From: Escherichia coli
GTDB lineage: Bacteria > Pseudomonadota > Gammaproteobacteria > Enterobacterales > Enterobacteriaceae
DNA: 64,000 nt
Assembly: GCF_041886205.1 (NCBI RefSeq)
Contig: NZ_CP169029.1
Reading direction: 5' to 3' (one strand)
Shown: positions 14,817 through 30,694 of the stretch, piece by piece
Layout: the number at the start of each line of letters is the position of its first letter
How positions within the stretch are numbered: position 1 is the first letter of the stretch
Notes under the pieces: generated by a model
Databases searched by the model: none
The model's input: only the letters and a program-made list of their open reading frames with translations
Told to the model about the DNA's origin: nothing
Position numbers and translations under genes: made by a program

Positions 14817-14927
14817 TTAATTTGATCGCCCGAACAGGAATGTTTGGGCGATTTTTATTACGATAATAAAGTCTGTTTTTAATATTATCATGTTAAATGT
14901 TTATATTATAAAAAGTCGTTTTTCTGC

Positions 14928-14947
14928 TTAGGATTTTGTTATTTAAA
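14928..14947 (+). promoter_or_regulatory. GAD box (GadX/GadW/GadE binding site) upstream of gadA
   Basis: Exact 20-bp TTAGGATTTTGTTATTTAAA, 80 bp upstream of the gadA ATG. Confidence 0.85.
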
Positions 14948-15026
14948 TTAAGCCTGCAATGCCTTGCTTCCATTGCGGATAAATCCTACTTTTTTATTGC
15001 CTTCAAATAAATTTAAGGAGTTCGAA

Positions 15027-16427
15027 ATGGACCAGAAGCTGTTAACGGATTTCCGCTCAGAACTACTCGATTCACGTTTTGGCGCAAAGGCCATTTCTAC
15101 TATCGCGGAGTCAAAACGATTTCCGCTGCACGAAATGCGCGATGATGTCGCATTCCAGATTATCAATGATGAATTATATCTTGATGGCAACGCTCGTCAG
15201 AACCTGGCCACTTTCTGCCAGACCTGGGACGACGAAAACGTCCATAAATTGATGGATTTGTCGATCAATAAAAACTGGATCGACAAAGAAGAATATCCGC
15301 AATCTGCAGCCATCGACCTGCGTTGCGTAAACATGGTTGCCGATCTGTGGCATGCGCCTGCGCCGAAAAATGGTCAGGCCGTTGGCACCAACACCATTGG
15401 TTCTTCCGAGGCCTGTATGCTTGGCGGGATGGCGATGAAATGGCGTTGGCGCAAGCGTATGGAAGCTGCAGGCAAACCAACGGATAAACCAAACCTGGTG
15501 TGCGGTCCGGTGCAAATCTGCTGGCATAAATTCGCTCGCTACTGGGATGTGGAGCTGCGCGAGATCCCTATGCGCCCCGGTCAGTTGTTTATGGACCCGA
15601 AACGCATGATTGAAGCCTGCGACGAAAACACCATCGGCGTGGTGCCGACTTTCGGCGTGACCTACACCGGTAACTATGAGTTCCCGCAACCGCTGCACGA
15701 TGCGCTGGATAAATTCCAGGCCGACACCGGTATCGACATCGACATGCACATCGACGCCGCCAGCGGTGGCTTCCTGGCACCGTTCGTCGCCCCGGATATC
15801 GTCTGGGACTTCCGCCTGCCGCGTGTGAAATCGATCAGTGCTTCAGGCCATAAATTCGGTCTGGCTCCGCTGGGCTGCGGCTGGGTTATCTGGCGTGATG
15901 AAGAAGCGCTGCCGCAGGAACTGGTGTTCAACGTTGACTACCTCGGTGGTCAGATTGGTACTTTCGCCATCAACTTCTCCCGCCCGGCGGGTCAGGTAAT
16001 TGCACAGTACTATGAATTCCTGCGCCTCGGTCGTGAAGGCTATACCAAAGTACAGAACGCCTCTTACCAGGTTGCCGCTTATCTGGCGGATGAAATCGCC
16101 AAACTGGGGCCGTATGAGTTCATCTGTACGGGTCGCCCGGACGAAGGCATCCCGGCGGTTTGCTTCAAACTGAAAGATGGTGAAGATCCGGGATACACCC
16201 TGTACGACCTCTCTGAACGTCTGCGTCTGCGCGGCTGGCAGGTTCCGGCCTTCACTCTCGGCGGTGAAGCCACCGACATCGTGGTGATGCGCATTATGTG
16301 TCGTCGCGGCTTCGAAATGGACTTTGCTGAACTGTTGCTGGAAGACTACAAAGCCTCCCTGAAATATCTCAGCGATCACCCGAAACTGCAGGGTATTGCC
16401 CAGCAGAACAGCTTTAAACACACCTGA
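15027..16427 (+). CDS. gadA: Glutamate decarboxylase alpha, 466 aa
   Basis: Full-length PLP decarboxylase; genomic context next to gadX distinguishes it from gadB. Confidence 0.95.
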
Positions 16428-16444
16428 TAACATAACGTTGTAAA

Positions 16445-16494
16445 AACCGAATGCCCAGCCTTTAAAAAAACAGCTGGGCATTCGGTTGCTTATT
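16445..16494 (+). terminator. Rho-independent terminator of gadA
   Basis: 15-bp stem aaccgaatgcccagc / gctgggcattcggtt followed by T-rich tail. Confidence 0.7.
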
Positions 16495-16796
16495 AATCGC
16501 AATAATATATTGGCTGTCTATTCATCGTGTTAATAAGATATATGCTATATGAATGTTTATTAAATGTAGCGATTATATGTAATGTCACGAAAAGGGATTA
16601 TTTGCTTACTATTAATTTCCCTACGTTCTTAAACATGTTTTTTGTATTATAAATCCAGTCATCCTGCCCGTAGAACATCACACATTATCATCCTGTTCTC
16701 CCGCTTCGTTTAAATTTTTTATCAATCAATTTGACTTAAGAGGGCGGCGTGCTACATTAATAAACAGTAATATGTTTATGTAATATTAAGTCAACT

Positions 16797-27352: not shown

Positions 27353-27393
27353 TCTGTGTGGCAGCGTAGCCAGACTCACCGTAAGCCTGAAAT

Positions 27394-27924
27394 TCACACC
27401 AGATAATCAATATGCTGATGGCGTACCAGCTCATTGATCCGCTTAAGATTGAGGATCATCATGATATTGTGTTTATGGCAGTAGAACGTTTTTAGCGATA
27501 TTTTCAGTTTCTCCAGAATATCTTCCGTTGTCATTTGATTCGCAATGCAGCTCAGAACCTGATGTTGCTTGCGCGAAAGTGACACAGCCGCTTCAGGCAC
27601 AGAGCAGTAACTACCATTGATGAGTGCGACAAAGTCGATGATGGTGATAGTCCGCGGAACAAAGGTCACCGGTACTTTCCCCAGACAGCGTTTAATATTG
27701 AAGGGGGAGAAAATAATTACATGAACAGGTTTTAATCGTTCAATTTGAGTGAGAAAATTAGAATGAAATACATTATTCATTAATGTATCAATAATGACGA
27801 AGGCATTCTGATGCAACATTACGTCGATCTCTTCTTCGTTCTGTATATGAACGACATTACCTTTACTCAGAATGTTTTTCATCGCGGTGAAGAACATCGT
27901 ATCCCTGGTAATTATAAGAAACAT
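27394..27924 (-). CDS. dctR: LuxR-family regulator DctR (YhiF), 176 aa
   Basis: ORF translation matches YhiF. Confidence 0.9.
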   Translation of the reverse strand: MFLIITRDTMFFTAMKNILSKGNVVHIQNEEEIDVMLHQNAFVIIDTLMNNVFHSNFLTQIERLKPVHVIIFSPFNIKRCLGKVPVTFVPRTITIIDFVALINGSYCSVPEAAVSLSRKQHQVLSCIANQMTTEDILEKLKISLKTFYCHKHNIMMILNLKRINELVRHQHIDYLV

Positions 27925-28079
27925 AACCGACTCCTGGTGCAGACATTAACTTTATAATCAGTTTGCCAAAGGTAATTAACAGGACAGGGCTTATAATAAT
28001 ATCAGTTAGCTTACTGTGTATTAATTGGATGTAATGCATGATGCAGATACTGGGAAAGCACCTGCATCTTTCGGTGGTG

Positions 28080-28646
28080 TTATTTGACCAGCTCAGGTGT
28101 TACCTGACTCACTGCATTGGTGTAGTAAGGCACGCCCCAGCCCGGTTCCGGCCAGAATGCACCATAGCCGTAATCCCACAGGTTATAGGTGGTATTAACC
28201 ACTTCTCTCAAACGCCACACCTGGATGCCCTGCATATTCACTTCCAGGAAGTTATACGGGACTTTATTGATAAAGCCAGGTTGTTCACCCTGAATGGTGC
28301 CGAGGATGGTAACAAAGTGATTACGATAGTTCACTGGATCAAGGAAGCCGCTTTGTCTGGCGAGCAGTCGGCCCTGATAGTTGGCTTCAATATCAGGCTT
28401 CGCATAGCTATCCAACGGTAATACAGCGATTTCTAACAACGTATCCGTTTTGCCATTGATAACGTTGATAACCTTCCCACCAAAGCGCGCTTGTTGACCA
28501 ACATATAACCCCGGCTGGTTATGAACAGCAACAAAACTTTTTTGAATATCAGGTTGGTTATTGCCTTTGATATTTTGCGGAATTGAACTACATGCGGCAA
28601 GCAAAAATGAAAGGCTGAGGATGAGTGCACCTTTTGTCATGTTCAT
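28080..28646 (-). CDS. slp: Outer membrane lipoprotein Slp, 188 aa
   Basis: Start at MNMTKGALILSLSFLLAACSS (lipobox); the ORF track is extended upstream in frame. Confidence 0.9.
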   Translation of the reverse strand: MNMTKGALILSLSFLLAACSSIPQNIKGNNQPDIQKSFVAVHNQPGLYVGQQARFGGKVINVINGKTDTLLEIAVLPLDSYAKPDIEANYQGRLLARQSGFLDPVNYRNHFVTILGTIQGEQPGFINKVPYNFLEVNMQGIQVWRLREVVNTTYNLWDYGYGAFWPEPGWGVPYYTNAVSQVTPELVK

Positions 28647-28892
28647 GTTACTATCCTTATCAACAAATATTAAAACCATAATAGATATTTCTTTATAGTT
28701 TTCATCTGACTCTGAGGCGATATGCCTGATAGTAACGTAAACCTGTCTAATGTTTATATCCCTTCTGTTTAGTTCAATTTCGTTATTTTGGGGCGTGGTA
28801 TGAGTATCCATCGCCCCATAATATAACCCTTTGTTTTAAAATTACATAAAATCTATCATTATTCAATGATTATAAAGTACTAATAATCAATA

Positions 28893-30116
28893 TTATGGTA
28901 TTATATTCTGATAATGATTTGATAAGCGAATTCTTTTACCAGATGGTATTTCTATTTCCACCCCATAATTTATATCTTTTTCATTAGGCAGATCTCTCTT
29001 TAAATAAAAGGGGTATGAAATCTTTTCGGGTTGAAGTGTCTCGTAATGAAATGCTATGAATTCATTTTTAGACATTGTTGCCCATTTTTGAATTTTATTG
29101 TATAGAGAGGGTGTTGTAAACTCTTGAAGTTGTTTATAACATATTTTTTTGAACTCTTGCTTATATTTTAATATGTCATCAAATGAAAGATTTACTACCT
29201 TTGCCTCTAAGAAATCAATTATTCTCGAAGCAATTTCCGCTTTCGCGCGTAAAGAGTTGTCATTAATAGTTAACAATGTAGAAAACAAGCCATTGATTTG
29301 TTTGTCAAGATGCTGTTCATATTCATGTAGTTTGGGGATTGGATTTTCCTTGTGTGAAAAAATAGTGTTAAATAAATTTGCGTCAGTGAAATTTATATTA
29401 AGTAGATCTTCAAAATAAAATTTTGATAAGGTTAGGACTAGCCTGGACATATCTTGCCCTGTCATGTTGAAATCAATAAAGTCGCATCCAGCAAGGGCTT
29501 CCATCCTATTTTCATTTTCACTGTGCTCAATATACAGCTTCGCCATTTTTAGGTACAGGCTTTGAATGTCTCTTATATCAGTTGGTAAGTCAGCTCGTTG
29601 CCCAGCAAAATTTTTATTATCGGAAGAAACGGTTTGGACACTGAATCTTTCGGGTATTCCTTCTTCTACGAGAATTTTAGTTATGATTGGATTGTTGGGT
29701 TCTGGATTAACGACAACAATGATTTGACATACAGAATCCTTATCCTTTTCGTATCTAATGTTATGAATCTGATTAAGTATTGATTGTGTCTGTTGCGTAA
29801 TTGGTGTCGAACTTATCGTTTCAATGTTATTAATAAGACTTACAAGTTGAGCCACAACTTTTGAGTAGTCTGCATTTGTATATGTGGTGTTCGTGTGGCA
29901 TGCATTAATTTGTTGGAGTTGTTGTTGCGCTAAATCAAATTGTTCAGGGTTGTATCCTTCTCCAGAGAATGTGGAATTAATGGGTTGTTGTTCTTCCCAA
30001 TTATCACAAGGCCACTTCGGTGTGTCTGGCGTTTTAACATCGTCGGTATTTGTTGTGCGGTTATAAATATCGCCGTGATATGTATTTATTATACCTGGGG
30101 TAAAGTCAATTGACAT
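28893..30116 (-). CDS. yhiS: YhiS, protein of unknown function, 407 aa, intact
   Basis: Uninterrupted AT-rich ORF in the slp-ars interval; K-12 carries this gene split by IS5 (from memory). Confidence 0.75.
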
Positions 30117-30694
30117 AACATTCCTTATTCATCATCTGTTTATGCTAGGATTTTTAAATTGGATAATTAGAACAGGAATGGATTTTCTTCTACACACAAT
30201 AAATATAATGCGTCATATCTTCCTGATATAATTACCTTTAACTTCCCTTTCATTTCCACCCGGTAATATTTGTGTATAAAAAAGGGCAGTGATAGTATCG
30301 TAAAAGAATACGTTAATAACTATCAAAAAGCGCTCATTTTAAAAAGTTAGTATGTTCTCCGATAGTGTGTAAAGTGATATTTTTGTGATGTTTTAGATGT
30401 GTAATAATGAACCAGGTTAAAGTGTATTTAAAAATGTGTTGTATTGGCGACTGAAATCTGCCTTTTAAAAAGGAGGAGGGTACTGAGACAAAGAGACATT
30501 GCTTCTCCGATAAAATGTCAGAGAAGCATGATTACGTGGTTATTGTCTGTTGATGACTTGTTGACCGAGCCGTCATCATTCTCAATGCATTAGTTAAATC
30601 ATTTGTGATTTTTAAGGATTATCCTGTCTATGATTTTCTACTTAGAAGGATATGGCACTAACTATGCATCTTATAGTTTACTGCTGGCATCTAT

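Follow-up and report, generated by a model that had tools for sequence, protein, structure and literature searches.

An acid fitness island of Escherichia coli in which AT-rich regulatory segments alternate with GC-typical enzyme and transporter segments

We analyzed a 64,000-nucleotide stretch of Escherichia coli DNA (contig NZ_CP169029.1; this whole stretch is called the window), of which positions 14817–30694 are the acid fitness island (AFI) of E. coli, in the short form that has no chu genes. The AFI is already known and is among the best-studied loci of E. coli, and its confirmation adds nothing new. In the reading we favor, the low GC content of parts of the island is not a sign that pieces of different recent origin meet there; the regulatory part maintains its low GC content, most plausibly in connection with H-NS-dependent control. 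We place the probability of this reading as a whole at roughly 0.85.

As a megablast query, the region 14817–30694 matched 5,425 of 5,426 complete E. coli genomes. It is 100% identical to the corresponding part of NZ_AP045833.1 (strain wlxctx60), from which the window differs, across the 47.7 kb compared, by five single-nucleotide polymorphisms and a single 1-bp indel near 45304. Given this near identity, the Prokaryotic Genome Annotation Pipeline (PGAP) annotation of NZ_AP045833.1 transfers directly. The gene order in the window is treF (−), ccp (+), gadA/gadX/gadW (+), mdtF/mdtE (−), gadE (−), hdeD (−), hdeA/hdeB/yhiD (+), dctR/slp/yhiS (−), an ArsP-type permease (−), a second ArsR/SmtB gene (+), arsC-B-A-D-R (−), dinQ, and gor (−). 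The AFI gene set and order (slp, dctR, yhiD, hdeB, hdeA, hdeD, gadE, mdtE, mdtF, gadW, gadX, gadA) is present and collinear with K-12, and is located where the AFI is expected, between yhiS/ars and ccp (yhjA)-treF. A first-pass annotation, made from the sequence alone, had named gadA, gadX, gadW, mdtFE, gadE, hdeD, hdeAB, yhiD, dctR, slp, and yhiS, and these identities are borne out by the annotation and by K-12 collinearity, as is the presence of the embedded regulators GadE, GadX, GadW, and DctR (the last LuxR-type by PF00196).

The same annotation had described a contiguous AT-rich block beginning at gadA. The AT bias is real, with a GC content of 44.1% for 14817–30694 as compared to 51.6% for the left flank (1–14816) and 50.7–51.8% for the right flank; none of the other non-overlapping 15.9-kb stretches of the window, which served as the sole baseline for composition, falls below 47.7%. 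The bias is not contiguous, however, but resides in two patches. Entropic segmentation, in which the boundaries had log-likelihood ratios (LLRs) of 31–152 as compared to a maximum of 21 among 200 shuffles, placed the first patch at 16413–19146 (39.4% GC; boundary LLRs 99 and 134), spanning the gadA-gadX spacer, gadX, the small RNA (sRNA) GadY, gadW, and the gadW-mdtF spacer. The second patch, at 23688–30804 (outer boundary LLRs 152 and 65), runs from gadE through yhiS and its spacer, and is composed of sub-segments at 23688–24957 (33.9% GC), 24958–28631 (42.8%), and 28632–30804 (33.2%). The remaining segments are 15297–16412 (57.0% GC), 19147–23687 (53.3%), 30805–32230 (46.6%), and the sequence from 32231 (52%). 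The edges at 16412, 19146, and 23687 fall within 15–70 bp of the stop codons of gadA, mdtF, and gadE. Together the AT-rich segments cover 9,741 bp (61%) of the region at 38.6% GC, and the GC-typical ones, corresponding to gadA and mdtEF, 5,657 bp (36%) at 54.1%.

Individual genes follow the same division. The median GC content at third codon positions (GC3) is 0.419 for the ten AT-rich AFI genes and 0.627 for 17 core genes of the flanks (Mann-Whitney p = 3.4e-5), whereas gadA and mdtEF, at 0.627, are indistinguishable from the core genes (p = 0.92). A difference from the flanks thus holds for the ten genes but not for gadA and mdtEF. A leave-one-out codon-similarity index built from the 17 flanking core genes agrees with GC3, giving 0.58 for the AT-rich AFI genes versus 0.67 for the core (p = 4e-4), and 0.67 versus 0.67 for gadA and mdtEF (p = 0.69). 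The gadA coding sequence (15027–16427, +), annotated as glutamate decarboxylase, has 54.3% GC and a GC3 of 0.63, like core genes, and is misplaced as the start of an AT-rich block. The genes mdtF (19080–22193, −) and mdtE (22218–23327, −), for a resistance-nodulation-division (RND) efflux pump, are comparatively GC-rich, as had been claimed (53.1% and 55.1%; GC3 0.62–0.63). By contrast with these, the gene for the LuxR-family central activator gadE (23714–24241, −) has 33.0% GC, and those for the AraC-family activator gadX (16797–17621, +) and the AraC-family regulator gadW (17989–18717, +) have 40.1% (GC3 0.36) and 41.8%, respectively. GC content is 40–47% across hdeD (25040–25612, −; Pfam DUF308), hdeA (25867–26199, +), hdeB (26315–26641, +), and yhiD (26705–27352, +; Pfam MgtC). 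These are followed by dctR (27394–27924, −; Pfam GerE), the outer-membrane lipoprotein gene slp (28080–28646, −; Pfam Slp), and yhiS (28893–30116, −). By GC3 yhiS is the most AT-rich gene of the block. The gene ranked second in AT-richness is gadE. In gadE, dctR, and yhiS, GC content at second codon positions is also low (0.23–0.30, with gadE at 0.23), indicating that the bias extends to amino acid composition. Overall, regulators, small envelope proteins, and long regulatory spacers have ~33–46% GC, and the large enzyme and transporter units 53–55%.

Evidence on whether the GC-rich mdtEF genes have a separate origin, as the first-pass annotation had suggested, comes from relatives of gadE. 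Full-length relatives, encoding 176-amino acid LuxR regulators 43–52% identical to GadE, occur in Citrobacter, Kluyvera, Yokenella, Kosakonia, and Pluralibacter, at chromosomal sites other than that of the AFI. As in the window, they lie beside hdeD, hdeA/B, AraC regulators, and an amino acid decarboxylase, and are AT-rich relative to their neighbors; the decarboxylase, however, is of the Orn/Lys/Arg family instead of GadA. In Citrobacter amalonaticus (locus L085), the order is slp, gadE-like, crcB, membrane-fusion protein, RND permease, hdeD, hdeA, and hdeB, followed by ammonium-transporter and urease genes. In Pluralibacter (L094) it is decarboxylase, AraC, gadE-like, RND permease, hdeD, hdeA, AraC, and permease, with no membrane-fusion protein called. 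Kluyvera, Yokenella, and Kosakonia have a 755-amino acid decarboxylase, gadE-like, (hdeD), hdeA, AraC, a 445-amino acid permease, and (hdeB); from their sizes and Pfam matches the decarboxylase and permease appear to be adiA/adiC-like. A further relative is on a metagenomic contig (L087), whose GadE is 77% identical and which carries dctR, yhiD, hdeBA, hdeD, gadE, mdtEF, a gadW-like gene, and a second AraC gene.

The pumps that adjoin these gadE-like genes belong to the MdtEF clade, as judged from protein identities. MdtF itself is 71% identical to AcrB and 70% to AcrF. The RND permeases beside gadE-like genes are 77–93% identical to MdtF as compared to 68–72% to AcrB and AcrF, and the two membrane-fusion proteins (L087 and C. 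amalonaticus) are 66–84% identical to MdtE as compared to 48–54% to AcrA and AcrE. In C. amalonaticus and Pluralibacter, the pump comes directly after the gadE-like gene. The compositional step recurs with the adjacency. In the window gadE has 33.0% GC and the adjacent pump 53–55%; the respective values are 33.5% and 52% in L087, 34.3% and 48% in C. amalonaticus, and 40.5% and 64.1% (GC3 0.83) in Pluralibacter. Across ~50% protein divergence, the gadE family remains at 33–43% GC in every genus examined (at least five), while the pumps span 48–64%. The recurrence of the gadE-pump adjacency in three other lineages implies that the linkage is old and predates the E. coli island, and the mosaic origin read from GC-rich mdtEF does not hold up against the same contrast in L087, L085, and L094.

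The surroundings of some of these clusters were also noted. In L085 (865–7510 and 8485–20531), the AFI-like cluster lies directly between a P4-like satellite (Psu, Ogr/Delta, AlpA, and primase, with a SIR2 gene beyond) and the ammonium-transporter and urease genes, on a scaffold that differs from the treF scaffold. From this arrangement, the locus may be a composite one for acid survival, situated at an integration hotspot; a tRNA gene was not found in the 20.5 kb of L085 that was covered. In Yokenella (L086), the cluster of GadE-like, HdeD, HdeA, AraC, permease, and HdeB genes ends near a tRNA-Ser (15457–15544). In Kluyvera (L092, 15446–16678), a phage-type integrase comes after the same cluster, along with a methylase/helicase-nuclease pair that resembles a restriction-modification system, and the Yokenella/Kluyvera cluster site appears also to accept mobile elements.

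The AFI is part of a lineage-specific insertion. A TreF-anchored search of species-representative genomes, onto which 29 window proteins were mapped, listed 80 loci, 75 of them non-Escherichia. In 52 of the 75, gor is found just upstream of treF, at a distance of 185–8,919 bp (median 1.9 kb; less than 1 kb in 19), as compared to 24,389 bp in the window, and eight listed Citrobacter loci (youngae, sedlakii, and others) have the order gor-ccp-treF. None of the 75 loci contains an AFI or ars protein. The filling that is specific to Escherichia, between gor and ccp, therefore comprises 14817–37403 (22.6 kb) and includes, beyond the AFI, the ArsP-type permease, ArsR/SmtB, arsC-B-A-D-R, and agrA/agrB/dinQ (30695–37403). 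The GC-typical ars operon, which had been counted among the flanking core genes, is absent from the gor-treF interval of all 75 loci, such that this apparent core flank is itself part of the lineage-specific filling. The proposal of horizontal acquisition gains support from the same comparison, in which other Enterobacteriaceae have gor beside treF or ccp-treF without AFI genes. A published reconstruction places the AFI insertion within Escherichia (PMC5799925), and gadEWX are absent from Salmonella (PMC4918353).

The insertion is old, since a deep Escherichia lineage (E. coli E69, NZ_CP089930.1; genes 80–95% identical in nucleotide sequence, compared from gadA to mdtE) carries gadA-gadX-gadW-mdtFE at the same ccp-treF site. 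Between the window and E69 (L007, 5435–6220), gadX is 80% identical in nucleotides (76% in amino acids) and gadW 86%, as compared to 89–95% for gadA, mdtF, mdtE, and core genes; in this comparison, the AT-rich regulators and spacers change at about twice the rate of their neighbors. The AFI is also essentially fixed in E. coli and devoid of the mobility hallmarks of a recent island. Presence does not vary among strains (5,425 of 5,426 genomes match), and only the sub-parts chu, yhiS, and arsP do so. ARAGORN detected no tRNA in the whole window, and no integrase, transposase, or other mobility gene is annotated between treF and gor. The best pair of boundary direct repeats (14819/30157; 24 nucleotides, 75% identity) is within chance expectation, and its left copy belongs to the ccp terminator hairpin. 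No plasmid-borne copy of the AT-rich part was found, the plasmid matches being RND-pump homologues and gadA/gadB copies; matches to "plasmids" of 4.8–4.9 Mb are evidently chromosomes and were rejected.

Of the 5,573 records that matched (chromosomes and plasmids of 5,425 genomes), only 6 reach 99% identity or more over the AFI, and the TreF of the window is 100% identical to that of Escherichia sp. MOD1-EC7003 (L004), a GTDB species representative. From these two observations, the lineage of the source strain seems to be an uncommon one, whose hosts include bear, pigeon, and frog.

These data bear on three other accounts of the island. A recent mosaic assembly, in which an AT-rich island from a low-GC donor later gained mdtEF (and gadA) from GC-richer sources and the GC steps are the junctions, would explain the sharpness of the steps and their proximity to gene ends. 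It would also fit the status of gadA as a discrete cassette, shared with gadB and missing from the diverged AFI copy L087 (PMC5799925), and a capacity of the island for accepting insertions, as seen for chu and for insertion sequence (IS) elements at yhiS. We consider this account unlikely, given that the adjacency of gadE with MdtEF-clade pumps recurs in L087, C. amalonaticus, and Pluralibacter, that gadE-mdtEF is a single operon in K-12 (PMC3708157), and that pump GC content depends on the lineage while gadE stays low, which fits differential compositional evolution of linked genes better. A little less probable still is the arrival of the whole 22.6-kb gor-ccp filling (agr/dinQ, ars, arsP, yhiS, and AFI) as one block. 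The filling is contiguous in the window and none of its genes is in the gor-treF interval of the 75 listed outgroup loci, but its parts vary independently: arsD/arsA and the arsP/arsR2 pair occur in some E. coli only, the synonymous divergence (dS) of the yhiS allele is about 8 times that of AFI genes, and L087 has the dctR-to-gadW core beside unrelated right-hand flanking genes.

Least probable by a clear distance is that the AFI stood at gor-treF in the ancestor of the Enterobacteriaceae and was deleted elsewhere, its AT-richness being native and locally evolved. Genes resembling those for GadE, HdeD, HdeA/B, Slp, and MdtEF are indeed found in other genera, and the fixation of the island in E. 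coli and its want of an integrase, tRNA, or att-like repeat are as this account would have it. However, many independent clean deletions would be needed to leave gor beside treF or ccp-treF without an AFI remnant in 52 listed loci of many genera. The AFI-like cluster is also on a different contig from treF in C. amalonaticus (L085 versus L020) and Yokenella (L086 versus L063), and the E. fergusonii copy is non-syntenic (PMC5799925).

A more specific proposal is that the low GC content of the AFI regulatory part is an actively maintained, gene-specific trait and not the fading signature of a foreign donor; this we advance tentatively, as somewhat less than an even prospect. Several points weigh against our interpretation. 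Maintained AT-richness is argued from five loci and from composition only, and an MdtEF-type pump may possibly have been recruited repeatedly and independently beside a gadE-type gene. H-NS occupancy is carried over from K-12, as it is not readable from sequence. Promoter-like sites are not above the expectation from composition (45 versus 39 ± 6 in shuffles). Lastly, the 80 listed TreF loci include no Salmonella, for which other genera and the literature stand in.

H-NS silencing of the island, as put forward in the first-pass annotation, is supported by the K-12 literature only, together with the 97–100% identity to K-12. In K-12, H-NS binds the gadE, gadW, and slp-dctR promoters preferentially in gel shifts, direct control of hdeAB, hdeD, and gadX by H-NS has been reported, and hdeA, hdeD, and dctR are derepressed 19–35-fold in an hns mutant (PMC2984483). 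The gadE-mdtEF operon is repressed by H-NS from a 798-bp promoter (PMC3708157). An extended H-NS/StpA-dependent occupancy domain covers hdeAB-yhiD, hdeD, arrS, and gadEF, and its occupancy is lost in an stpA hns double mutant (PMC11230228). The AT-richness associated with H-NS-silenced xenogeneic DNA is seen at 16413–19146 and 23688–30804, with 33–43% GC as compared to ~52% in the flanks. By a count of listed sites, the density of promoter-like sites in the AT-rich segments is ~3 times that in gadA and mdtEF; their enrichment was rejected as a proxy for xenogeneic DNA, there being no excess over composition-matched shuffles.

Glutamate-dependent and general acid resistance are known for the K-12 AFI (PMC4918353, PMC2984483), and the AFI of the window would be expected to confer the same. 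By the workings established in K-12, GadA would decarboxylate glutamate and thereby consume protons, HdeA and HdeB would serve as periplasmic acid chaperones, and HdeD, YhiD, Slp, and DctR would contribute to envelope and metabolite protection, with the MdtEF efflux pump co-transcribed with gadE. Control would be exerted by GadE, GadX, GadW, and DctR along with the sRNAs GadY, GadF, and ArrS. In growing cells at neutral pH, H-NS/StpA would keep the regulator genes and AT-rich promoters silent, until displaced by activators that act in acid or in stationary phase. The island belongs to a filling, specific to Escherichia, of a junction whose two sides lie close together in most other Enterobacteriaceae. 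Its alternation of composition appears to be gene-specific and old, with gadE AT-rich in every genus examined and the GC content of the adjacent pump lineage-dependent.

All three sRNAs are present. GadY, also claimed in the first-pass annotation, is matched at 17633–17746 (−; Rfam RF00122, 147.9 bits, E = 2.7e-31), with K-12 gadY mapping at 100% identity to 17638–17743 (−), antisense to the gadX 3' end and the gadX-gadW spacer. GadF (Rfam ES205) is located in the gadE 3' region at 23525–23615 (−) and is 100% identical to K-12 gadF; the ES205 match (RF02754, 105 bits) covers 23525–23596. ArrS (24553–24622, +) lies antisense to the 5' leader of gadE and matches K-12 arrS at 100% identity. The gadE-hdeD regulatory spacer (24242–25039; 35.7% GC, 97.4% identical to K-12) is exactly 798 bp, the length of the K-12 gadE sensory promoter region, which is H-NS-repressed and contains multiple promoters (PMC3708157). 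A PGAP "hypothetical protein" of 92 amino acids at 23435–23713 (+; WP_001205329.1) is probably a spurious call, as it has no family match, overlaps GadF in antisense, and is absent from the curated K-12 annotation.

The K-12 AFI, from slp to gadA, spans 13,620 bp (U00096.3 3,653,961–3,667,580) at 46.0% GC (PMC9144400). The window shares with it the gene order and relative orientation, 97–100% nucleotide identity from gadA to slp, the three sRNAs, the 798-bp gadE spacer, and the ccp-treF neighbor, and reads in the reverse orientation. It differs in yhiS, which is split by IS5 in K-12 but intact and of a different allele in the window (88.8% nucleotide identity over 61% of the gene), and in the right-hand neighbor, which is an ArsP permease, ArsR2, and arsRDABC in place of arsRBC. 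The long AFI of O157:H7, strains of phylogroups B2/D/E, and E. albertii measures about 22.7 kb and carries chuSA-chuTWXYU (PMC9144400, PMC5799925). All AFI genes are shared with the window at 97–100% identity, but the window has no ~9-kb chu cluster in the yhiD-dctR spacer. The metagenomic contig L087 matches the non-syntenic AFI copy described for E. fergusonii (PMC5799925). It has the dctR-yhiD-hdeBA-hdeD-gadE-mdtEF-gadW order and the AT/GC alternation of the window, but its proteins are 62–93% identical, it has no gadA, its second AraC gene is differently oriented and 49% identical to GadX, and its flanking genes are unrelated (an appA-like phosphatase and MarR). Like classical tRNA-linked islands (e.g., the locus of enterocyte effacement at selC), the AFI is lineage-specific, being absent from the same site in the 75 listed loci of related taxa, provides an adaptive trait, and, by the K-12 literature, is silenced by H-NS. 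Its composition departs from that of the flanks over the 61% of the block that is AT-rich (38.6% GC) but not over gadA and mdtEF (54.1%). Unlike the classical islands, it has no tRNA, integrase, direct repeats, or mobility genes, and occurs in virtually every E. coli genome.

Three pieces of the locus are truly mosaic: the gadA/gadB cassette, the site of chu insertion, and the hypervariable yhiS/arsP edge. The gadA cassette (14928–16431, +; 1,505 bp) is shared with the gadB locus and is 95.7% identical to K-12 gadB, the similarity beginning 99 bp ahead of the start codon and ending 4 bp beyond the stop; both cassettes are embedded in ~30% GC DNA. The yhiD-dctR spacer (27353–27393) is 41 bp in length and empty in the window. 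This junction is intact in 3,173 of 5,420 genomes, the others breaking there, and in ~41% of E. coli genomes the spacer is occupied by the ~9-kb chu heme-uptake cluster (e.g., NZ_CP032789.1).

At the other edge, 28647–32221 shows far more polymorphism than other parts of the island, with only nine genomes at 99% identity or above and most at 80–95%. The intact yhiS (407 amino acids; 34.2% GC, GC3 0.30) has named homologues exclusively in E. coli or Shigella, in allele classes down to 71% amino acid identity, and the alleles are visibly recombinant within the gene. Relative to an O157-type strain, yhiS has a dS of 0.33 and a ratio of nonsynonymous to synonymous divergence (dN/dS) of 0.42, as compared to a dS of 0–0.08 for its AFI neighbors. 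These values point to old, diverged haplotypes under weak constraint. The YhiS protein has no Pfam, NCBIfam, or PADLOC match, and marginal pentapeptide-repeat matches at amino acids 207–255 (PDB, E about 0.1). AlphaFold2 modeling of 13 alleles provided no usable fold (mean predicted local distance difference test score 42, predicted template modeling score 0.29), and no functional paper was among the literature matches listed. At the island edge, yhiS thus stands out as an orphan confined to Escherichia/Shigella, whose alleles are deeply diverged and recombine.

Between yhiS and arsC (30695–32099) are the ArsP-type permease (PF03773 ArsP_1, weakly similar to Cu/Zn efflux families) and a gene for a divergent ArsR/SmtB regulator. 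The pair is found in 2,222 of 5,426 genomes and is lacking in both K-12 and an O157-like strain; an E. coli plasmid (H84) carries an 83%-identical copy. The ars operon (32222–36524) is arsRDABC, with the ArsA ATPase and ArsD metallochaperone, whereas K-12 is without arsD/arsA; arsR is 86% identical to its K-12 counterpart, and arsB and arsC 97%. Farther along, 36661–37350 contains the dinQ type I toxin with agrA/agrB antisense RNA repeats (AgrB Rfam matches at 36675–36758 and 36909–36992; direct repeats of 114 nucleotides, 87% identity).

Two features were noted elsewhere in the window. A second AT-rich block, at 50155–54329 (35.3% GC), has sharper boundaries (LLR 383 and 502) and holds two paralogous DUF4049 genes (50599–52224, also DUF6860; and 52486–54108), with no PADLOC match. 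It adjoins yhiM (49164–50216), which is reported in the literature as an H-NS and GadE/RcsB acid-resistance target. A hicA/hicB toxin-antitoxin pair, with hicA frameshifted, is located at 59470–60100 between yhhJ and nikR, in a local GC dip of ~44%.

For genome scans, the island offers a caution, in that a low mean GC content over 16 kb masks how strictly AT-rich regulatory DNA alternates with GC-typical genes for enzymes and transporters. A GC step inside the island is no evidence of separate origin, since the gadE-pump step recurs in distant relatives. If low GC content is indeed maintained in the regulatory part, then composition would indicate dependence on silencing of the H-NS type, and not how recently the DNA was transferred. 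In that case, the gadE-pump-hde core would represent an old module that moved among Enterobacteriaceae and recruited different decarboxylases: GadA in Escherichia and an AdiA-like enzyme elsewhere.

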